DNA of 64,000 nucleotides from Giardia intestinalis (taxonomy: Eukaryota). Shown in pieces: positions 10,939-28,046 of this stretch. The DNA lies in NCBI GenBank assembly GCA_000002435.2, contig CM018792.1. One strand, 5' to 3'. Made by a program: the position numbers and the translations under genes. Under the pieces are notes generated by a model. That model worked only from the letters and a program-made list of their open reading frames with translations, had not been told where the DNA came from and did not search any database. Position 1 is the stretch's first letter. Every line of letters begins with the position of its first letter.

Positions 10939-11868
10939 ATGGGCAGAAGATCTCATTCCGACCGCAACCTGTTAAAGCATAAAAGGAGAGCGGAGAAGGA
11001 TTCAAATGGCAACGGCTTAGAACACGATGCTATTACTATTGATGCTGCCATCGAGAAGCCTTCAATCCGAGCTGTATGCAAAGAAATGGCACCAGCTGAT
11101 TCAGAATCCACTTTGAAATACGCTCTAGCAGAGTTGATACGCAAACCAGCTTCTCAGGAAGGCTGTGCTAATTCGTCTTTCACGTCTATTACTCAGAGCA
11201 AATTTGCGAGGACTTTGACATTGGAACATGAGACTACCAGGGCCTCAGTAAAGAGGGAGCAGCGGGAGTGCCTTGGCTACGTCAAGTGCACTTATAGTCG
11301 ACGGAATGTGGCGGCAATAACTGCAGACGATCTGACGGCAGCAGACCCCATGTTAAATGTCATTCACATTTTACACCATAACTGTGTACCAGTGCCAGTT
11401 CACTGGCGGCTACGCAATGGCAGATTCTTGTCCGAGCATGTGCCCAAGTACACAGTCGCTTCGAAACATCAAAACGTGTACCAGATACCTCTATTTGCAG
11501 CAAAGCTCTATAACCCAAAGGATATCTATGCGAGATTCCAGAGGTCGAGCAGAGAAAGTAAGCAGTACAGTGCTTCACAGACTGTTGTCATAACCTATGA
11601 GCATCGTACCAATTGGGTAACTATACCGCTTCTCTCACATGGAGACCTTTACCAAGAAGCGCGCAGCAGTATAATTGGTCGTTCCGCATACTCTCCAGGC
11701 ACCATGTCTGATGAGTTACGTGAAGCATTGAACATGCAGCCAAATGATCCACCTCCGTGGCTAGCCCGTCAAAGCCTATTGCTTAAACCTTCATGGCTCC
11801 AGGATATCTCCATCGCAGCGCTGAACGTATCTGCTCCTAAGCAGGAGACACCTCTGCTGCGCTTCTGA
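10939..11868 (+). CDS. splicing factor 3b subunit 2 (SF3b145/Cus1)-like protein, DUF382 + PSP domains
   Basis: DLTAADPMLNVIHILHHNCVPVPVHW matches the DUF382 core DVTAADPKLLVHLKATRNTVPVPRHW. TIPLLSHGDLYQE matches LTIHGDLYYEGKE. GTMSDELREALNMQPNDPPPWL matches the PSP-domain signature GDLSDELRxALGM...PPPWL of SF3B2/Cus1. Confidence 0.7.
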   Translation: MGRRSHSDRNLLKHKRRAEKDSNGNGLEHDAITIDAAIEKPSIRAVCKEMAPADSESTLKYALAELIRKPASQEGCANSSFTSITQSKFARTLTLEHETTRASVKREQRECLGYVKCTYSRRNVAAITADDLTAADPMLNVIHILHHNCVPVPVHWRLRNGRFLSEHVPKYTVASKHQNVYQIPLFAAKLYNPKDIYARFQRSSRESKQYSASQTVVITYEHRTNWVTIPLLSHGDLYQEARSSIIGRSAYSPGTMSDELREALNMQPNDPPPWLARQSLLLKPSWLQDISIAALNVSAPKQETPLLRF

Positions 11869-11933
11869 TCATCATCTCAATAAAGATCAGCCACTCTATC
11901 AACCTAGCACGGGTTGTTCTTCTCCAAGAAAAA

Positions 11934-12182
11934 ATGAAACGGGATGAAGTGCGAAAGAAACTCATGGAGCTTGATATTCGAAAGAAAGAGATCGAGGCGG
12001 AAGCAAAAAGCTATCAGGAGGTGCTGAACGCATACCCGAAGGTGCTGGACGATGAAGGCTTTCCCCTTCCTAACGTCCCCCATGAGCTTGTCGCCAATGC
12101 TAAGCATAAGCTTGTATGTCTCAAGACAGATTACAAGAATATAATGAACGAGATAGAAAGTTATCTGCCCTATGCGTTTTAG
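11934..12182 (+). CDS. Nas2/PSMD9 N-terminal-domain-like mini-protein (82 aa), no PDZ domain
   Basis: VRKKLMELDIRKKEIEAEAKSYQEVLNAYPKVLDDEGFPLPNVPHELVANAKHKLVCLKTDYKNIMNEIESYL aligns with human PSMD9 [25 protein letters not shown]...[42 protein letters not shown]. The ORF ends after this helical domain. Confidence 0.5.
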   Translation: MKRDEVRKKLMELDIRKKEIEAEAKSYQEVLNAYPKVLDDEGFPLPNVPHELVANAKHKLVCLKTDYKNIMNEIESYLPYAF

Positions 12183-12206
12183 CGTGATATGATGCTATCA
12201 CATAAA

Positions 12207-12219: not shown

Positions 12220-13872
12220 ATGGCTGTACTTTCTCTTCTAATTGGTCTAGGTTGCGTGGCTCTAACATGGCTTCTTTTCGTCTCTGTCTTGCGGCGGAGC
12301 TCTCCAAGTACACTTCTGCGCCTCAAAGAGTCTGGAGTTAGTGTCACACATAATGGGTTTTCTAAAGCATTTTATTTCAAGTCTATACCTCAGTATAATC
12401 TAACGTTAAGCGTATCACCAGCCAGTGAGAGTGCCTCCAAAAAGAAAGCACGTGCTCTCCAAATCATAAGCACATTGTCAGTCGTACTGGGGACTGCATT
12501 CAGTATTCTGAGCATTGCTGTTATCATCTGGTCCATTTGGTCGTCCTTCAACAAAAAAGAAGTTCCCTACACCCTCACAGTACCGCACTCTAACGTGCTG
12601 ACAGTGTTCCTTTGCCTCTGCAGCGCCGTCCTCTTTCATGAGATGGGGCATCTGCTACTTATGTACAGCACCAAGACACCCATTCGTGGGTTTGAGGTTG
12701 GGATACGGTACTTCATTCCCTTCGTTACAATCTTTGGGGCTTTAAATTCACCTGGATCCGCTTCTGACTCTCAAAAGGAAACCATTAACGCTATAGGCGG
12801 TATTCTCGGAAACATATCCACCTCGTTAATAGCTCTCGCTATAGCATATCTTGTTTCTTACCGAACACGCACCTCAGTTTCTTCCACCTCCCTGTTTGTT
12901 TACTTGGGAGAGGACCCCCACGACATTAGTCCCTATTCACTAGTTCAGTCCGTAGGAAGTACACCAATACACAGCCCAATGGATCTAGATCGTGCCCTCC
13001 GGACGATTGAGGCGCAGTATACCGGAGATTATGGAGCTATTGAGCTCTTGGTGGACAACAAAAACACCTTCTCGTTGGCCGCCGGAATCAGGCAATCGGT
13101 TCAGGCGCAGCTAGCATACCAGAAGAGTGGTGCCCTTGCAGGTGTGGCTGATCTCTGGCCACCATACTCATCATCACAAAGCCTAGGAGGCATACAGATA
13201 CCGTACACAGCTTTGGAAAATATGGAGCCACTACAATGCCACATCCCACAAGATGGGGTCCCAATACTTCTATCCCACTATCACGTGCTTTCAGCGTCTC
13301 ACCTGCTTGTTCTATCTCCCTATGTTATGAACACTTCTCTCCTTTCAACCTTTCTCTCTAGCGACCAGTCCAGCCTCTGTCATTACAGCACAGCAGACTA
13401 TGTCTGCATGTATCCATATTTCTTCGCCAATGACACCCTTAGCGCCAGTGGAAACGGCGTCTATGCACGTTCGATAGTTAATGGTGTTCAGCAAATGATA
13501 CCACTACCAGTTTCTGGCAGTCACCAGACTCTCACCCTCGAAGGGTGGAAAAAGCAATATCAGAGGCAGTTTGTCGCTGTTCCAACGTCTCTAGTGGGCA
13601 CAGCTTCTGATGCCAAAGAGTTGGAGGTAGCGGTTCAACGGATACGAAGAACAAACAAGTTCACCTTTATCGTCCAGATCTTCACAGAAACGAGTGCCGG
13701 CATGGCTATCTTAGCATCACTGGGATTTCCGTTCGGTAGCGACGGCCAACACCTTCTGCGCAACGTCCTACGGAATAAGTCGACTCAAGCAATCGTCCAG
13801 TCAGCCTTTTGGGCGTCCTCGCTGACGCTGTGTTGTTTTCTGGGGCTGAGCACAATATACTCCCTATTCTAA
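12220..13872 (+). CDS. site-2 protease-like (peptidase M50) intramembrane zinc metalloprotease
   Basis: Hydrophobic N-terminus and several TM segments. LFHEMGHLLLMYSTKTPIRGFEVGIRYFIPFVTIFGAL matches the M50 signature HExGHxx...G...(F/I)xPF..(F/I)G (compare RseP [24 protein letters not shown]). The C-terminal ASLGFPFGSDGQHLL resembles the M50 NxxPxxxLDGG motif. Confidence 0.6.
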   Translation: MAVLSLLIGLGCVALTWLLFVSVLRRSSPSTLLRLKESGVSVTHNGFSKAFYFKSIPQYNLTLSVSPASESASKKKARALQIISTLSVVLGTAFSILSIAVIIWSIWSSFNKKEVPYTLTVPHSNVLTVFLCLCSAVLFHEMGHLLLMYSTKTPIRGFEVGIRYFIPFVTIFGALNSPGSASDSQKETINAIGGILGNISTSLIALAIAYLVSYRTRTSVSSTSLFVYLGEDPHDISPYSLVQSVGSTPIHSPMDLDRALRTIEAQYTGDYGAIELLVDNKNTFSLAAGIRQSVQAQLAYQKSGALAGVADLWPPYSSSQSLGGIQIPYTALENMEPLQCHIPQDGVPILLSHYHVLSASHLLVLSPYVMNTSLLSTFLSSDQSSLCHYSTADYVCMYPYFFANDTLSASGNGVYARSIVNGVQQMIPLPVSGSHQTLTLEGWKKQYQRQFVAVPTSLVGTASDAKELEVAVQRIRRTNKFTFIVQIFTETSAGMAILASLGFPFGSDGQHLLRNVLRNKSTQAIVQSAFWASSLTLCCFLGLSTIYSLF

Positions 13873-14021: not shown

Positions 14022-17000
14022 ATGAAGCTGCGATATTATCGCCACGTCCGAGACTTCGATTTCCGGATACCAGAGACTATATTTGACAAGGATCCAGTAA
14101 GCCTTATCTTTCTCATTATTAATTTGGTGGATTTCTGTCTCTTTTATGTGTTGCGTGAGCTTCATCCTGATTCCCCGCTTCTAATGTATTTTCTATGGAT
14201 TCCGTTACAAATTCTTATCACCTACGATGCAATCAACTTTACTATCCAGTGCACTCGGTATCACATACGGTTTTTGACGTGGTATTATATTATGTGGACT
14301 GTCTCTAGGATTTCCGCTGTGGTTTCAGTTATAGTGGTGCCCTTCATTCTCAGGGCTGGGGTAAGCCAATTATACCACTATCACATGGGCAGTTTCAGCA
14401 TATATCGAGGGCTGCTTCCCAGTCTCGGTCCAATCTTTCGCATGAAGGAGAGTCATACCCGTTGGGTTAAGGAATATTATATCCCCGACTTTGTCAAGTC
14501 CATAATCCGCATATCGTACTCAGTCGTTGCCTTCATATTTTGCTATGCTGGGCTTTTCCAAATTTTCAACTTTCCCCTTGGGACGTTCTCAATAAGCACA
14601 ATTGATGCAGTTTATTATACTATGGTTAGCATTGCCAGCATAGGCTACGGTGACATCTATCCGACAAATAACTTTTCAAAGGTGGTGCTCTGTCTCTACA
14701 TAATAGCCTTCCTGGGAAACCTGCCTATCTTTGTTAGGAATAGCACAGAAGAGCTGCACGTTACTCGGCTACTACACAAACTAAGGTCAGCCTGCAAAAA
14801 TGGAATTACTATTATTTCCGATCAAAACATATCGTTTGTCTTTCTCCTCAGGCTTATCTTGCCGGCAAATATTCACATTGGCCTGATAGACGTCACTGAA
14901 GACGAGAATCCTCACTTACGCAACACCTGCTACAGCTTCAATAACGTAGGCTACATCAATCTGAACACGTGCGGGGAGAATACAGCAAGGCGGGCGCTAG
15001 ACTATGAATTCCTGGTCAACAGCCTGGTGGGTAGAAGCAGAAAGATTGTCGTGCTGTCTCCAGTGTCATCTTCAACCATGGCGGACAGCACCTGTCTGGC
15101 TATGGCACTCAATTGTGGCAGAGTTGCAAAAGTGGATACACAGTTAATTGTGATGACCCGGGAGGGTGGACGTTCCCAGACACTGCAGTCACACATTGGC
15201 GCCTACCACGAGAATTGCTACATAGTGGATATGACCGACTTTAGTGCAAAGATACTTGTTTTGGCGATACTGTTCCCGGGGTTTGCTACCTTCTTCTTCA
15301 ACATCATGCTCCCCCCTCATGTCTCTTTACATAAACTTGAGAATCGAACGGCAGATTTCTATAATGAAAGAGTAAGGAGAGTGAGAATCCGCACGCGTCT
15401 CCTTTTGGCAAACGCACGAGCAAAGGGTAAGAAGCATCAAAGTGGTAGACGATCCAAGCTATACTGCAAGTCCAGATCAGACGATGTTTTCCCGTCCAGC
15501 TCTCTACCTGGCATGCAGGGGCTTGAGTTCAATAATAGTGCACAGAATACGCTCGATGCAAACCAGCACATGTACTCTTCTCATGTGCGCTTCACGGATC
15601 TGAAAAAGCGATATACCATGGACCTGTCTAGCAGCTCGACCATGTCCTTGTACAAGGAGTACTATCCATGGGGAGTCAATAATAAAGATAGTGATGTGCA
15701 GGATAAAAAGTCGTATGTTCCGAAGGCGTACTCAATAGCTGCACTTAGAGACAAACCAACTGGCCTTGTGAAGAGCCCCTCGTTGCCAGAAATTCCATAT
15801 GACAACAACGCAATCGCTATAGCAGTCTCGACACCCAATCTTGGCACCGTTCTCCCCGTGCCCATCACCCTGGAGACCATGCAAACAGCCTGTGCTGACT
15901 ATTTCGGTAAAGAGAGCCAGCAACAGAGCACATCTTTCTCTAATGTGTCGTCTGTTCCATCTATTGATAATATAGCTGCCCTAGAGACTCGCTACTCGAG
16001 GCGTTCCTTTCAAGCAGGGCGGACAAAGGAGCCCCGTTTACAATTCGAAGCAGCTCTAACCCAGTTTATATCGAAAATAACCAAGTTCCCCACTCTTGAG
16101 TTTCTACGATCCACCATTGACATTCCCGTTTTTGATTTCCATCCCGGCCTGGTGCACGACAATAAGTGGCGTGCATGGCTTTCCTTTGAGCAAAACAAGC
16201 AGGTACACCTATTTCTTCCTGCCATGGTCGCTGCCACTGAGCCGCTGGACACAAGCACGACATTTAGCTCAAAATCCAATAACTATCCATCTAAATCAAA
16301 GTACTTGCGCAAGAGCTCTATCGACCTGGAAACTATGGTGCGCAATTGTGGGGCGGATACCACTAGTGACCGCTTCCGACCCCTTGCTGTAATAATTAAC
16401 AAGCGTGTTCTTCAGCGTAAAGAAGATGATTGCCTCAACTATGAGGATACATTTGTCAAGAAGTGGCGCTTCACTAATCAGCTTTTTAAGTTCGACATTT
16501 GCTGCAATCTGCACGAAGGACTCACGATGGACAAGCCTGATCTGCTGGGCATTACTAAGCGGTTTCCGATTTATGAAGTCAAGCACAACAATGAGCAAAT
16601 ATGGAGCAAAACTTCTAAGATGACATCCGCAAGTAAGGCCATATACTCTCTCAAGCAGCTATCTGCACACCTCCCCATTGCTGAGCAACCCAGTGAGTTT
16701 CTAGGCGATATGTCCAGTATGCTATCATTGTCAAAGATTGACGAGCTGTCCATGCAAAGTGCCCAGACCAATATCCTTTCACCGCCTACGTTACTGAATA
16801 GAGTCTCTCTGAACGCCATGTCACGGGCTTACTCTCCTGATGCAGAGTCTTCAAAACAAATACCACCTATAGACAATTCACTTGAACAAGCGATAGCTCC
16901 GCCAGAAAACCCTGTGAACCCAGTATCTAATACCACAGGCCTGAAAAGCATTCTGGGGAAGAAAATCTCAACCCTAATGAGTGAGTACATTGGGGTACTG

Positions 17001-18272
17001 AATCCACAATTTGACGATTTTGTAATAACTAGCACAATAATGAATCATACACTATCCTTGGGTGCACTGCAGCAGGTTAAGCTATCGGCCAGGAACGTCA
17101 GCTCACTTGGACTTATTATATTAAATGACCTAGATCCAAAGCTTTTTTATGCAACAATGTTTATGCTCATGGATCTTCAGAAGATAGATAGCATGGTGCT
17201 AGTGTTTGACTGTGTGAGCGACGAGATGATAACTAAATACCGGGGCATGTTGTACAAAATGGCATCTAAATTGGTTGAGCGTGTACGCTGCTCCATGCCC
17301 AAGAAGCAGACTCTTTGTAGGGCACCATTCCTTGAGCAAGCATATTCTAGCAGGGCTGTGCTGTCCATGCCGTACCGTCAAGCCTCCGTCGCCCATGTCA
17401 ATCCAACCGCTGAGCACAACCTCGATTCATCTGGTACCATGAAGCTTGACATGTGCTTCGGAGATGAACAGATGAGCTCGTCTCAGGAACACGAGATAGA
17501 TGCTGAGTGTGTGGGACACTCGCAGACTCTGTCACGTGAGCTTTATGTTGTTAACCAAGAGGATACGATCTTGACGTATGCCTTACCCAGTGAAGACAAG
17601 GACGGCTACCTCAGCGAAGGGAAGTCAAAGACTTTCACCATCAAAATGTTCGCCATTGACTCAACAATCCCCGAAGAATTGACTGACATAGGATTTGCAG
17701 ATCTCGACAGGGCCATGATCGTGAACCCGCTCGACAACTCGGTGGCAACAGAGGGTCATCTGCTCCTTACAAAGTCTGCATGTGAGATGATAGGCCATAC
17801 GGACGTGATTGTCTACTCCTTAGACGTATATAATACGCTAATGCTTCACGATCTTGGATTTGGTGACAACTATCGATCCGGATCCTTCATTCCGAGCATC
17901 GAGGCCATCCTCACAGGCACATTTATTCAGTACTCTGAGAATGCACTGACGGCGCTAATGCTTATGAACAAAATTTACGCTTACAAAGATTCCGTCATTG
18001 TCTACCAAGTGTTATTCGACGATCGTACACATACGCATACAATATTTGCCAGTACGCGGGGAGCGAATACCCTCAACAATATCAAGAATAGACGCTTTTC
18101 CCAGCGAGTGTTGACTGTGGAGGCCCTCCAGAGCTTTCTTGGCGGATGCGGACTGGAGGTCCTCTACTACAGCATATGCGGATGCATCCTTGTTGCACCG
18201 GAGCCTAGCTTGTTTGTCGAGCACAAAGACTTCATTGTAGCATATAGCGTTGATTTATTTAAACAATTTTGA
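14022..18272 (+). CDS. potassium channel alpha subunit with a very long cytoplasmic C-terminal region (possibly BK/Slo-like)
   Basis: N-terminal ~240 aa have multiple TM helices and the pore loop TIDAVYYTMVSIASIGYGDIYPTN (K+ selectivity filter xxGYGD), followed by an S6-like helix KVVLCLYIIAFLGNLPIF. About 1150 aa of soluble sequence follow with no domain I could name. Confidence 0.6.
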   Translation: MKLRYYRHVRDFDFRIPETIFDKDPVSLIFLIINLVDFCLFYVLRELHPDSPLLMYFLWIPLQILITYDAINFTIQCTRYHIRFLTWYYIMWTVSRISAVVSVIVVPFILRAGVSQLYHYHMGSFSIYRGLLPSLGPIFRMKESHTRWVKEYYIPDFVKSIIRISYSVVAFIFCYAGLFQIFNFPLGTFSISTIDAVYYTMVSIASIGYGDIYPTNNFSKVVLCLYIIAFLGNLPIFVRNSTEELHVTRLLHKLRSACKNGITIISDQNISFVFLLRLILPANIHIGLIDVTEDENPHLRNTCYSFNNVGYINLNTCGENTARRALDYEFLVNSLVGRSRKIVVLSPVSSSTMADSTCLAMALNCGRVAKVDTQLIVMTREGGRSQTLQSHIGAYHENCYIVDMTDFSAKILVLAILFPGFATFFFNIMLPPHVSLHKLENRTADFYNERVRRVRIRTRLLLANARAKGKKHQSGRRSKLYCKSRSDDVFPSSSLPGMQGLEFNNSAQNTLDANQHMYSSHVRFTDLKKRYTMDLSSSSTMSLYKEYYPWGVNNKDSDVQDKKSYVPKAYSIAALRDKPTGLVKSPSLPEIPYDNNAIAIAVSTPNLGTVLPVPITLETMQTACADYFGKESQQQSTSFSNVSSVPSIDNIAALETRYSRRSFQAGRTKEPRLQFEAALTQFISKITKFPTLEFLRSTIDIPVFDFHPGLVHDNKWRAWLSFEQNKQVHLFLPAMVAATEPLDTSTTFSSKSNNYPSKSKYLRKSSIDLETMVRNCGADTTSDRFRPLAVIINKRVLQRKEDDCLNYEDTFVKKWRFTNQLFKFDICCNLHEGLTMDKPDLLGITKRFPIYEVKHNNEQIWSKTSKMTSASKAIYSLKQLSAHLPIAEQPSEFLGDMSSMLSLSKIDELSMQSAQTNILSPPTLLNRVSLNAMSRAYSPDAESSKQIPPIDNSLEQAIAPPENPVNPVSNTTGLKSILGKKISTLMSEYIGVLNPQFDDFVITSTIMNHTLSLGALQQVKLSARNVSSLGLIILNDLDPKLFYATMFMLMDLQKIDSMVLVFDCVSDEMITKYRGMLYKMASKLVERVRCSMPKKQTLCRAPFLEQAYSSRAVLSMPYRQASVAHVNPTAEHNLDSSGTMKLDMCFGDEQMSSSQEHEIDAECVGHSQTLSRELYVVNQEDTILTYALPSEDKDGYLSEGKSKTFTIKMFAIDSTIPEELTDIGFADLDRAMIVNPLDNSVATEGHLLLTKSACEMIGHTDVIVYSLDVYNTLMLHDLGFGDNYRSGSFIPSIEAILTGTFIQYSENALTALMLMNKIYAYKDSVIVYQVLFDDRTHTHTIFASTRGANTLNNIKNRRFSQRVLTVEALQSFLGGCGLEVLYYSICGCILVAPEPSLFVEHKDFIVAYSVDLFKQF

Positions 18273-18383: not shown

Positions 18384-19718
18384 TCATTTTACTGGGCCGC
18401 CACTGAGCAGAGATTGACCCTGTGTAACGTCTCTTTGAAGATTGAATAGTGTTCGCTCCAAAATAGAGACCTTGCGTGTATACTCCCCTATAGCCTTCTG
18501 AAGAGAGTCCTGAGTGGCTATTAAGGAAATAAAGTCTATTGAGGCCGGTCCATCCCCAGAGGCAATTTCATTCTGACGGAGCTTCTTGAGAACTGACCTG
18601 TCTATGCCCAGCTGCTTCTTGCAGTCATTAATCTGAGCGCTTATCTTGTCAATTGCCGTTCGTTTAGCAAATATTTCCTTTTCAATGAACTCCTTTTCTT
18701 CTGTTATTTTATTCAGATCTGATTTGAAGGTGTTTAGTGCCAGCGTGGTATTTCCACTGGTAAGCTTAAGCCGAAGAAGCTCCTGGTTCTTGGCAGCTAT
18801 CTTTTCAAGATATTTGGAGTTCGCAATGGCCAGTTGATCGAAGTCAATGGAGGACATCTGATCTGTTGCTTCAGTCTGCTTTTCGAGCTGCCTCTGGAGC
18901 TTCTTGATTTGCTTGTTGTTCACGTCTATCCGTGCCTTCATATTGTTCATGTCTGTTGTGATTTTCCCTATAACCTCGGAATAGAATGAATTGAGCTTAA
19001 ACGCTGACACCTTGGTGGGGATAGAAAACTGCCTTGCGCCAACCTGGGTGCTGGGCTTCGATGGGGACCCAGAAGGAGACTTAGTCGGGGATGCCGGAGC
19101 AGTGCTCTTTGCTTCTACATCTGGCTCACCTGCCGCTCCTTCTTTGCCTGATGCCTGAGCATGGACACGTACCGGCGACTTTACTCTACCGGGGCTGGGG
19201 GAGCGACTCCGAGTCTTAGGCGACGGGCTCCTACTGGTAATTACGTCTCCAGTATCGTCAACAGTTAGATACACCTGGTCACCGATGGTCAGTGCCGCCT
19301 GGGGGTCGGCCAGAACGTCACGGCGGAAGGCGAAAAGCCACCGCTTTATTTCAGAAAGCTTTGTCTCTGCGGAAATCGTAAAGGCCTTCAGCGTCAATGT
19401 TATCTCTGTACCCTTGTTTCGCATGATCTCTGCATCGCCCTTAAGCTCTTCCGATTCACAGATGGCTATCAAAACTTTCTCTTTCATGGTCAGGGTGTCG
19501 GAATTGTCATCTGCACTCTCTGCCAGCGCGTCCTCTTCGCCATCAAAGTGCAAACTGGACGTGGGATCGAAAATGCTATTCTCTTGATTTTTAAGAAAAG
19601 ACTGGTGGCGCTCAATGAAAGAAACAAGAAGATCATTTTCCTTCATGATCATTTCATTTGCCTGAATCAGCTCGTCTATTTTCTCGGAAAAGTTAATGAC
19701 CTGTGTGCTTCCAAGCAT
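18384..19718 (-). CDS. hypothetical coiled-coil protein with an SR/SP-rich segment (SRSPSPKTRSRSPSPGRVKSPVRV)
   Basis: 444-aa ORF with an ATG start. The C-terminal half is heptad-rich (NKQIKKLQRQLEKQTEATDQ...). Lies head-to-head with the next gene, 52 bp apart. Confidence 0.55.
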   Translation of the reverse strand: MLGSTQVINFSEKIDELIQANEMIMKENDLLVSFIERHQSFLKNQENSIFDPTSSLHFDGEEDALAESADDNSDTLTMKEKVLIAICESEELKGDAEIMRNKGTEITLTLKAFTISAETKLSEIKRWLFAFRRDVLADPQAALTIGDQVYLTVDDTGDVITSRSPSPKTRSRSPSPGRVKSPVRVHAQASGKEGAAGEPDVEAKSTAPASPTKSPSGSPSKPSTQVGARQFSIPTKVSAFKLNSFYSEVIGKITTDMNNMKARIDVNNKQIKKLQRQLEKQTEATDQMSSIDFDQLAIANSKYLEKIAAKNQELLRLKLTSGNTTLALNTFKSDLNKITEEKEFIEKEIFAKRTAIDKISAQINDCKKQLGIDRSVLKKLRQNEIASGDGPASIDFISLIATQDSLQKAIGEYTRKVSILERTLFNLQRDVTQGQSLLSGGPVK

Positions 19719-26339: not shown

Positions 26340-28046
26340 TCACATGAATCTGTGGGGCCCATTAATAAGCTCAAGCCATATGCAGAAGTTACGCTTCAAC
26401 TCATTGTAGTTCATATCGGGGCGAAGAAAGACGAAGATGCATGCCACAAGGTAGTGCACTTTATTTTTCTTTGTAGCGATCATATTGCAAAGCTCCCCTC
26501 TCTGGGTTATGGGGACATTGACGTGTTGCATAGTGGAGACACACAGCTCTAAAGTATCGAGCCAGTAAGAGAAAGAGTAGTCTTTGATATCGAACTTGAA
26601 ATCCATCTTGAGGTACTTGTGGAACCTCGAACGCAGACTGGAGAGGGTGCGGTTATTATAGATCAGAAGAGAATAGTAATAGTAGATGATGTGCCAATTG
26701 AGATCAATGGTATTATAATCTCCAACGTAGTAAAAGATGGCTGCCAGGATAATATTATCATCCTGCTCTGTGAATGCTTTCGGGGCCTTAGGACTATCTT
26801 CGTAGATAGTGGCCCGGAACGCGGGTCTGGGCCTACGTCTGTCAAAGGTGGAGCTGGCCAACCCAATGCAGCTGAATTTATATTGTGCATTGGAGTGGGG
26901 AGCAAAGTGCGACGCCGACTCATTCATGTAAGTTTTCGGGGCACTCTGCACGGTGTAGTTGATGTCTGTATCTACTACAATCGGAGTATCCTGCACTGCA
27001 TAGTTCCCACCCGTGGCATGCATGCTCGGCCAGGTTCTGCTGTGATGAGGGTGGGAGCAGTGGAAAGAGGATGACATGGAGTGGGACGCGTGCTCAGAGG
27101 TAGAGGAGTTGTCATGGACGGACTGTGCATACTTCTGCCGCTGGTGGGGCTCCTGGATGTACATAGACCCTCCACCAGCATCACTGTTGATCAGACTATC
27201 CATGGGATCAGGAGCGCAGCCAACGCTCTGGGCAGGCATATCATTGACCATGTTTGATGTACTGCTATCCCGTGCTCCTACGGCTCTACCAGATTGAGAA
27301 TCAAGCAGGAAATCAACCTGAGTGCCTACTCTGATACCAGCCGGTGGCTTTTCCTCAGAAGGAAACTCTTGGGACAAGAGCTGCATCAATGCGTCCCGTT
27401 CGGTCTTCGAAAGGGTCCTAATCATCCGCCTAAGATCGTCACGGCCTATATTTTCCCCCTTAGGGACAGAGGGCTTCTTACACTCAATTGGCTGTGTGTG
27501 TACCTTCACTCTTCGTTGCTCACCATAGGACTCCCCACCTTGATGGGGACTCGCCTGGACTGTGGGTAATGGCCGCTCATAAGCGTCGGCCACCTCTGAC
27601 TGCGGCGGCCGAGGATGAGGAGAAGGAGGAACGGGAAACTCCTCTAATGCTAGTGCAGTCGCCGGAGGTTCTTCGGAAATGAAGGGTATGATCTTCGCGG
27701 AAGCAGTAGGCAGGTGCGTATTATGACCTATAGAGTTGATAGGTTTTGATGGGAGAATTGTTTGTTCGGGCGGAAAAAACCGAAAACGCATGTCATTGGA
27801 TATCAAGACCCTTGCTGGAGTGAAGATGTAAGGCGTGGCTGTCCCTGATATCATATCGGACCCATCGTACAAGTAAACAGGGTCGGCGAACGGATCCAAC
27901 CTCGACATAGTCTCCCGAGCAGACTCGCTGCTCTGTTGGTCTGTAAAGCTGGGGAGGGTATCAGTGATTATCTTAAGATTTCGGTGTCGAAAACCTGCGC
28001 CCTGGCCCGCGAGTCTGGGAGAGGCTACCAATTCCCCGTGTGACAT
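26340..28046 (-). CDS. hypothetical protein (568 aa) with a possible C-terminal Myb/SANT-like motif
   Basis: Long ORF with an ATG start; Pro/Ser/His-rich middle. C-terminal FTEQDDNIILAAIFYYVGDYN...NRTLSSLRSRFHKYL loosely fits the Myb/SANT pattern (aromatic-TEEED..L...G..., NRT..Q.R.R...L) but carries an insertion. Weak. Confidence 0.4.
   Translation of the reverse strand: MSHGELVASPRLAGQGAGFRHRNLKIITDTLPSFTDQQSSESARETMSRLDPFADPVYLYDGSDMISGTATPYIFTPARVLISNDMRFRFFPPEQTILPSKPINSIGHNTHLPTASAKIIPFISEEPPATALALEEFPVPPSPHPRPPQSEVADAYERPLPTVQASPHQGGESYGEQRRVKVHTQPIECKKPSVPKGENIGRDDLRRMIRTLSKTERDALMQLLSQEFPSEEKPPAGIRVGTQVDFLLDSQSGRAVGARDSSTSNMVNDMPAQSVGCAPDPMDSLINSDAGGGSMYIQEPHQRQKYAQSVHDNSSTSEHASHSMSSSFHCSHPHHSRTWPSMHATGGNYAVQDTPIVVDTDINYTVQSAPKTYMNESASHFAPHSNAQYKFSCIGLASSTFDRRRPRPAFRATIYEDSPKAPKAFTEQDDNIILAAIFYYVGDYNTIDLNWHIIYYYYSLLIYNNRTLSSLRSRFHKYLKMDFKFDIKDYSFSYWLDTLELCVSTMQHVNVPITQRGELCNMIATKKNKVHYLVACIFVFLRPDMNYNELKRNFCIWLELINGPHRFM

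Follow-up and report, generated by a model that had tools for sequence, protein, structure and literature searches.

The locus at positions 14022-18272 of a 64,000-nucleotide stretch of Giardia intestinalis DNA (contig CM018792.1, assembly GCA_000002435.2; hereafter the window) raises the question of what kind of channel is formed by a potassium channel pore joined to a very large cytoplasmic body. The original prediction of a 1416-residue K+ channel was confirmed by the listing of open reading frames (ORFs) together with Pfam and PDB matches. The gene itself is known. The ORF product is identical at 1416/1416 residues (100%) to XP_001709490.1 of Giardia intestinalis WB, and is the already published GiK (GL50803_101194), a putative K+ channel found by BLAST (Palomo-Ligas et al., PeerJ 2019, PMC6397635), from which its sequence does not differ. 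The P15 ortholog was named among KCa homologues in 2012, and GiK is apparently the sole K+ channel of the Giardia genome to date (PMC3283738, PMC6397635). No electrophysiology of the cloned channel was found in the literature searched. In the other Giardia lineages the ORF is likewise intact and syntenic and shows purifying selection (pN well below pS), and transcripts have been detected; a pseudogene or an annotation artefact was therefore rejected.

In the published analysis, aa 1-500 were modelled on Aplysia BK and chicken Slo2.2; aa 500-1416 were not analysed, and the term RCK has 0 occurrences (PMC6397635). We propose, with a probability of about 0.75, that GiK combines a K+-selective pore with a cytoplasmic tandem-RCK ring that is stretched by insertions and gated by a ligand. 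The segments are as follows.

14022..18272, + strand: GiK ORF; single ATG-start ORF, 1416 aa plus stop; GL50803_101194 / XP_001709490.1.
14022..14492, + strand: membrane domain upstream of S5, aa 1-157; from hydropathy, invariant columns and motif scan.
14493..14579, + strand: S5 / outer pore helix, aa 158-186; from Ion_trans_2 (aa 169-242) and hydropathy.
14595..14660, + strand: pore helix and selectivity filter, aa 192-213; from Pfam, PDB matches and the family alignment.
14673..14747, + strand: S6 / inner helix, aa 218-242, continuing straight into the RCK1 linker; from Pfam, PDB matches and hydropathy.
14799..15314, + strand: RCK1 N-lobe as assigned by homology, aa 260-431; Rossmann-like betaA-alphaA ... 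betaF, then helix-turn-helix alphaF-alphaG.
15339..16034, + strand: insertion 1, aa 440-671; polar and rich in Ser, with little conservation, predicted unstructured.
16035..16226, + strand: conserved middle block, aa 672-735; present in 8/8 family members, pN/pS 0.10-0.14.
16227..17102, + strand: insertion 2 / RCK1-RCK2 linker, aa 736-1027; aa ~788-830 are an island of conservation in Giardia.
17103..17294, + strand: first part of the predicted RCK2 N-lobe (betaA-alphaA-betaB-alphaB), aa 1028-1091; clean 8-sequence alignment, AF2 strands and helices.
17295..17621, + strand: insertion 3, aa 1092-1200, inside the predicted RCK2 N-lobe; missing from the compact relatives P0035/P0036.
17622..18269, + strand: rest of the predicted RCK2, aa 1201-1416; betaC-betaF, helix-turn-helix, C-lobe and the final '...ILVAPEPSLFVEHKDFIVAYS'.

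GiK has a genuine K+-channel pore of the tetrameric P-loop superfamily. The segment TMVSIASIGYGDIYP (aa 200-214, nt 14619-14663) carries the selectivity filter SIGYGD (aa 206-211), which is invariant in 8/8 family members, namely five Giardia sequences and three distant relatives. Hydropathy peaks lie on either side of the filter at aa 161-186 (S5) and 220-238 (S6), and Pfam Ion_trans_2 matches aa 169-242 with 41.2 bits (E 1.6e-10; cut-off 22.5), in line with the predicted S5/S6-like helices within the first ~240 residues and with the profile check suggested for them. Searching the PDB with phmmer aligned the pores of NaK, MthK, KvAP, BK and AKT to aa ~189-242; a search of NCBIfam returned weak pore matches only. 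Among the long ORFs of the window, the pattern [ST]xG[YF]G[DE] occurs in GiK only, so that it was rightly singled out as the sole ion-channel signature. A second copy at nt 26499, in an ORF of 80 aa, was dismissed as chance.

An RCK domain follows the inner helix directly, as in the MthK / Slo / CASTOR superfamily; in the AF2 model of the G. muris ortholog an unbroken helix (216-257) runs from S6 into the linker. The original prediction saw no Walker, CNBD or EF-hand motif in the remaining residues and suggested divergent RCK domains there. Both statements hold. With the window protein alone, Pfam finds no domain at threshold in aa 243-1416 and no RCK match, and a profile built from the cytoplasmic regions of the five Giardia sequences gave 0 PDB matches at E<=10. 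When the alignment also took in the three distant relatives and was limited to the RCK1 block, both of which were needed, a pore-free profile of the family retrieved the gating rings of DMI1/CASTOR from the PDB (E ~1.5e-5). These are the only significant matches; Slo3 follows at E = 1. Sub-threshold Pfam matches to BK_channel_a, Slo-like_RCK and TrkA_N sit at colinear positions. The RCK profile check proposed initially is thus borne out in part: BK_channel_a (PF03493) reaches at best 22.8-23.2 bits in relatives (GA 26.8), Slo-like_RCK (PF22614) scores 13 bits on the family consensus (GA 24) and TrkA_N has E 0.0098 in the relative P0036, all of them below threshold and none in the window protein. 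At the sequence level, RCK1 homology of aa ~260-431 is established, and alphaF-alphaG of this lobe holds the invariant P419-G420-x2-T423-x3-N427.

Structure prediction, another check proposed, was poor for the window protein (aa 243-1416, 5 sequences, mean pLDDT 33.8) and better for the full-length G. muris ortholog (8 sequences, mean pLDDT 41.9), in which the RCK lobes alone are usable. Fold searches with the models place Slo, CASTOR and MthK on top, with RCK above other Rossmann folds in two algorithms. The most plausible reading of the cytoplasmic body is a tandem RCK gating ring, not a novel fold, and the unusual length of the protein arises because three insertions of ~230, 290 and 110 aa (together about 630 aa) interrupt the ring. 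These fast-evolving, Ser-rich segments are probably disordered. Insertion 1 is mostly deleted in G. muris and has a pN/pS of 0.25-0.39, compared to 0.07-0.15 for the folded modules. The middle block (consensus '...A-A-L-x-x-F-I-x-K-I-x-K-F-P-T...') may represent the C-lobe of RCK1, a candidate assignment by inference only; its hhalign comparison to BK is not significant (P 0.63).

A second RCK domain, formed by aa ~1028-1091 plus 1201-1416, is suggested by the modelled fold. In the G. muris model this region (aa 1028-1416) has a pLDDT of 60-80 (62-74 for aa 1028-1091), and the fold-search alignment lengths and the sub-threshold TrkA_N match in P0036 (E 0.0098) also speak for a second RCK, whereas the region has no significant sequence match. 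It is rather unlikely that RCK1 alone is genuine, as in an MthK-like channel, and that aa 1028-1416 constitute a different, lineage-specific domain. This alternative draws on the C-module profile and consensus, which retrieve nothing meaningful from PDB and Pfam (a CAVIN coiled-coil match at E 0.08 is noise), on the hhalign comparison of RCK1 with the C-module (P = 0.025), and on the derivation of the structural case from a model built with 8 sequences. The family blocks compared to one verified human BK, like RCK1 compared to the C-module, are colinear and not significant (P 0.025-0.06).

The original prediction suggested that the RCK domains could be BK/Slo-like and referred to a reported Giardia gBK channel. 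We found no such report in the literature searched. The named Giardia K+ channel is GiK itself (PMC6397635), so that the comparison proposed with a BK locus has no separate locus to draw on. That GiK is a true BK/Slo1 orthologue, activated by voltage and a Ca2+ bowl, is improbable. The sub-threshold BK_channel_a matches speak for it, as do the Slo channels heading the fold searches, the choice of BK and Slo2.2 as templates in PMC6397635, and the voltage-dependent, charybdotoxin-blocked K+ currents with a V1/2 of -30 mV obtained from total Giardia mRNA (PMC3970746). Should these currents come from GiK, they would speak for voltage dependence after all. However, BK_channel_a stays below its gathering score and is absent in the window protein; neither GiK nor its relatives reach the gathering score of the Slo families, the sequence identity in structural alignments with Slo is 7-17%, and the significant profile matches are to CASTOR/DMI1 only. 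The RCK part of the BK/Slo-like label stands; for RCK1, plant CASTOR/DMI1 is by sequence at least as close as BK/Slo. A homology search with the human BK gating ring recovered vertebrate BK only (94-99% identity), which left no basis for a diverse Slo profile, and one with a TMD+RCK1 profile was flooded by pore-motif words and uninformative.

The membrane domain also argues against a BK channel. Hydropathy places hydrophobic helices upstream of S5 at about aa 26-46, 53-75 and 82-115, and the G. muris model has helices at 25-47, 53-78 and 82-109. GiK has 5-6 hydrophobic helices in total by hydropathy, a TM count that is uncertain given a pLDDT <50 upstream of S5. The published topology has 7 TM helices (PMC6397635), of which the extra one probably corresponds to alphaF-alphaG of RCK1, a hydrophobic stretch (aa 411-429). 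A family-invariant motif, F125-x3-R129-G-L-x2-S134-L135, lies within aa 117-141. Voltage-sensor arginines had been noted as not evident: the motif scan of the helices preceding S5 finds no RxxRxxR or [RK]xx[RK]xx[RK] ladder, and classical voltage sensing is therefore not to be expected. A 6-sequence profile of the region gave 0 PDB matches at E<=10, the voltage-sensor domains of Slo included. GiK thus has neither the S4 ladder nor the recognisable voltage sensor of voltage-gated-like 6TM channels, and the region is at most a putative S1-S4 voltage-sensor-like domain. In the predicted RCK2, no conserved acidic cluster corresponding to the Slo1/BK Ca2+ bowl is found; the equivalent segment 'LHDLGFGDNYRSG' ('HDLGFGDNY') is variable within the family. 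The GxGxxG dinucleotide-binding loop after betaA, typical of nucleotide-binding KtrA/TrkA-type RCK/KTN domains, is absent in both Rossmann lobes.

It is highly improbable that the cytoplasmic body has no relation to RCK and that its weak matches are generic Rossmann noise of low-confidence models, as the DMI1/CASTOR profile match (E 1.5e-5) comes from sequence only and is independent of any model, the Pfam matches are independent, colinear and position-specific, and RCK ranks above other Rossmann folds in both algorithms.

In the proposed tandem-RCK channel, four GiK subunits would form the K+-selective pore from S5, the pore helix, SIGYGD and S6, and S6 would lead directly into the tandem module, RCK1 then RCK2. 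An intracellular ligand would alter the ring, pull the S6-RCK1 linker and open the gate. We infer the tetrameric ring assembly and ligand gating.

Several differences from known systems can be observed. Compared to Slo1/BK, Slo2 and Slo3, GiK lacks the Ca2+ bowl and a recognisable Slo voltage sensor and contains the insertions. CASTOR/POLLUX/DMI1 are plant nuclear-envelope cation channels (Kim et al. 2019, PMC6697748); the TVGYG filter is missing from both CASTOR and DMI1, of which CASTOR is permeable to Ca2+ and has 4 predicted TM helices (PMC6697748). In contrast, GiK has the canonical SIGYGD and 5-6 helices, which places it outside the CASTOR class. It resembles MthK in that the pore is contiguous with RCK, and Foldseek ranks full-length MthK among its top matches (E 7e-6; ~270 columns, S5 through alphaG). 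However, each MthK subunit carries 2 TM helices and one RCK, the second RCK being a soluble copy, whereas GiK has extra N-terminal helices and its predicted second RCK in the same chain.

The cytoplasmic body has few relatives, about 8 of ~15 billion proteins, and an exhaustive hmmsearch of its profile against 1.84 billion representatives gave 7 matches, with no Slo or CASTOR proteins. GiK most likely belongs, as a divergent member, to a class of channels that is well known, and does not found a new one. More speculatively, GiK and its relatives could be a third, previously undescribed eukaryotic tandem-RCK lineage. As this lineage would join a canonical K+ filter and a CASTOR/DMI1-like RCK1 to a non-voltage-sensor domain upstream of S5, without a known Ca2+, Na+ or nucleotide site, it might be gated by a ligand new to RCK rings, the ~630 aa of constrained insertions serving as a lineage-specific regulatory or cytoskeleton-anchoring hub. 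We hold this possibility tentatively.

An RCK-regulated K+ channel remains the basic picture. GiK, as apparently the one K+ channel of Giardia, has been proposed elsewhere as a drug target. Docking so far has used aa 1-500 and a 7-TM topology that probably counts an RCK1 hydrophobic helix as a membrane span, and regulation of the Ca2+-bowl type should not be assumed. The domain map of pore, RCK1, insertions and RCK2 tells what to express, delete and model. As a very divergent data point from a deep-branching eukaryote, GiK links the gating rings of the Slo and CASTOR types.

The channel is encoded by a single open reading frame in the window:

14022-18272, + strand: GiK, single ORF with ATG start, 1416 aa

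The window derives from Giardia intestinalis assemblage A, and the protein is identical (1416/1416 residues) to WB C6 XP_001709490.1 (UniProt A8B451). This exact accession was named GiK (GL50803_101194) by Palomo-Ligas et al., who predicted 7 TM helices, built a model of aa 1-500 with Aplysia BK and chicken Slo2.2 as templates, and carried out blocker docking (PMC6397635). Their analysis is confined to aa 1-500 and does not mention RCK. In Table 2 of that paper the molecular weight of the 1,416-residue protein is given as 25,811, where ~160 kDa is expected. In the list of Prole and Marrion, Giardia has one K+-channel homologue, the P15 ortholog EFO63588, placed in the KCa column (PMC3283738). 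RT-PCR has detected GiK mRNA (PMC10535608). For exactly this protein the original observation, a large K+ channel whose pore is canonical and which may carry BK-like RCK domains, is already known. For the Giardia 'gBK' channel that the original prediction took as reported, we found no describing paper in the literature searched.

Orthologs share 78% identity in assemblage B and 73% in two further lineages; the G. muris ortholog (1189 aa) is 41% identical across its full length. The assemblage B ortholog also occurs in public collections as a 1444-aa version (P0020/P0026), probably a call from an upstream start. Two short fragments of the gene, P0032 (207 aa) and P0034 (103 aa), have diverging ends that look like frameshifts or assembly errors.

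GiK almost certainly contains a K+-channel pore, as originally proposed. The signature TMVSIASIGYGDIYP is located at aa 200-214; the hydropathy peaks on either side of the filter, aa 161-186 and 220-238, correspond to the S5/S6-like helices. Pfam Ion_trans_2 matches aa 169-242 with 41.2 bits (cut-off 22.5), and a phmmer search of PDB sequences returns K+-channel pores only (NaK, MthK, KvAP, BK, AKT1), all at aa ~189-242. Within long ORFs of the window the K+-filter motif is found in GiK only, consistent with the claim of a sole channel signature. A 'SLGYGD' at 26499 (+ frame) lies in an 80-aa ORF overlapping a long minus-strand ORF and was rejected as a chance match.

The region preceding S5 contains a family-invariant motif, F125/R129-G-L/S134-L135. 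A motif scan found no [RK]xx[RK]xx[RK] ladder in any helix of this region, in agreement with the predicted lack of evident voltage-sensor arginines, and a profile search found no sequence relative of it among solved structures. We refrain from classing it as a voltage-sensor domain. Three hydrophobic stretches (aa 262-289, 411-429 and 1373-1391) fall within the RCK lobes, which probably explains why 7 and 9 TM helices were counted in publications; the 7-TM topology (PMC6397635) probably takes a hydrophobic helix of RCK1 (aa 411-429) for a membrane span. In P0035 and P0036, two distant family members, the protein begins ~35-40 residues later than in Giardia and the first hydrophobic helix is apparently absent, reflecting either too short a gene call or genuinely one TM helix fewer.

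The suggestion of divergent RCK domains was borne out by profile searches. While a five-sequence Giardia profile found no match in the PDB, a 6-sequence profile of the post-S6 block without the pore matches the gating rings of DMI1 (E 1.5e-5) and CASTOR (E 1.7e-5), both known from crystals. In both proteins the match falls on RCK1, and a second, weak one on RCK2; Slo3 is colinear at E = 1. The Pfam RCK models stay below threshold, while their positions follow the correct order: BK_channel_a (gathering score 26.8 bits) falls on a helix-turn-helix ('FPGFATFFFN') in G. muris (22.8 bits), P0035 (23.2), P0003 and the family consensus, and Slo-like_RCK (E 0.08) lies directly upstream. TrkA_N is found within the C-terminal block of P0036 (E 0.0098). 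We consider RCK1 (aa ~260-431) very probably present.

Both AlphaFold models are poor overall, with a mean pLDDT of 33.8 for aa 243-1416 of the window protein (5 sequences) and 41.9 for full-length G. muris (8 sequences), in which values rise to 51-71 in the RCK1 lobe and 60-80 in the C-terminal block. In both, the RCK N-lobe order betaA-alphaA...betaF-alphaF-alphaG follows S6 and is repeated at the C-terminus. Foldseek searches with the G. muris model return RCK channels and rings only at E <= 1e-3 (Slo2.2 2.8e-6, hSlo1 5.5e-6, MthK 7.3e-6, then CASTOR and DMI1), followed at 2-4e-3 by KtrA, the BK ring and the MthK RCK domain. Alignments span ~270 columns on full-length MthK and ~335-350 on isolated RCK domains. 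These lengths would fit two separate sources in the model, S5 through alphaG and the 344-aa C-module, respectively. RCK2 in the C-terminal block (aa 1028-1416) is likely, if less so than RCK1. That the channel has a single RCK and its C-terminal domain is unrelated we regard as unlikely. [quoted passage not shown]

For the window protein, modelled without its pore, no fold match reaches 1e-3; the top match is hSlo1 (E 8e-3), and 9 of the 15 best are Slo1/BK. These would suit a true BK orthologue activated by Ca2+ and voltage. The family lacks a conserved acidic cluster at the position of the BK Ca2+ bowl. Taken with the missing arginine ladder, this makes BK orthology unlikely, slightly more so than the single-RCK reading. 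GiK has no GxGxxG loop. Alignments of family blocks to the verified human BK sequence by hhalign are colinear and non-significant. A channel devoid of any RCK is scarcely tenable given the DMI1 and CASTOR matches.

Comparison of G. intestinalis with G. muris shows conservation (40-68% identity) over aa 1-460, 1001-1050 and 1201-1416; aa ~465-990 and ~1075-1200 are weakly conserved and in part deleted. An exhaustive HMMER search of 1.84 billion cluster representatives with the cytoplasmic part alone recovered only Giardia sequences and P0033, P0035 and P0036, long proteins from Logan assemblies. They share with GiK the pore, the post-S6 block, a short middle block (aa 672-735 of GiK) and the C-terminal block, and have different linkers. 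The C-terminal block is compact (~258 aa) in P0035 and P0036; the Giardia block has ~110 aa extra inside. The P0036 gene (L001, 6001-9159) adjoins a 3173-aa PI3K-like gene on a 108 kb contig whose genes are long, tightly packed and apparently free of introns. GiK itself carries three Ser-rich, polar insertions with 59-63% disorder-promoting residues, modelled by AlphaFold as coil or low-confidence helix:

aa 440-671: insertion 1
aa 736-1027: insertion 2
aa 1092-1200: insertion 3

Between assemblages, pN/pS lies at 0.07-0.16 for the folded modules and at 0.25-0.39 for the insertions, which therefore evolve faster, yet not neutrally; absolute dN/dS is unreliable because synonymous sites are saturated.

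The order PSP-domain protein, Nas2_N protein, M50 protease, channel and CCDC113/96 coiled-coil is conserved in two other lineages:

10939-11868, + strand: PSP (E 7.8e-15) and weak DUF382 domains, 309-aa ORF
12220-13872, + strand: Peptidase_M50 (site-2-protease family), 550-aa ORF, HEMGH motif, E 3.8e-8
18384-19718, - strand: CCDC113/CCDC96 coiled-coil family, 444 aa, E 4e-20
L002 890-1156 and L003 880-1128 (other genomes): Nas2_N (proteasome chaperone), 82-88 aa, flanked by the PSP and M50 protease genes

From the L002 and L003 positions, we infer a window counterpart of Nas2_N at ~11900-12200. The M50 ORF lies immediately upstream of GiK and is syntenic in two other Giardia lineages. The CCDC113/CCDC96 gene, of a ciliary/flagellar protein family, is convergent to GiK, with a Ser/Pro-rich middle and conserved synteny. 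PSP with DUF382 is the SF3b145/Cus1-type splicing-factor signature, which is noteworthy in a genome with almost no introns.

We propose, with a probability of roughly 75%, that GiK is a tetrameric K+ channel without a classical voltage sensor, in which a cytoplasmic tandem-RCK ring would gate the pore via a putative ligand, as in MthK, Slo and CASTOR. Classical voltage sensing would not be expected. Our analysis adds a domain map in which RCK2 is probable, sequence links the protein significantly to CASTOR/DMI1, neither a Ca2+ bowl nor an S4 ladder is present, and the taxonomic distribution is very narrow. The map should be of use to GiK researchers and will not surprise channel specialists. 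Total Giardia mRNA gives rise to voltage-dependent, charybdotoxin-sensitive K+ currents with no gene attached (PMC3970746); if GiK is truly the sole K+ channel, these currents call for an explanation.
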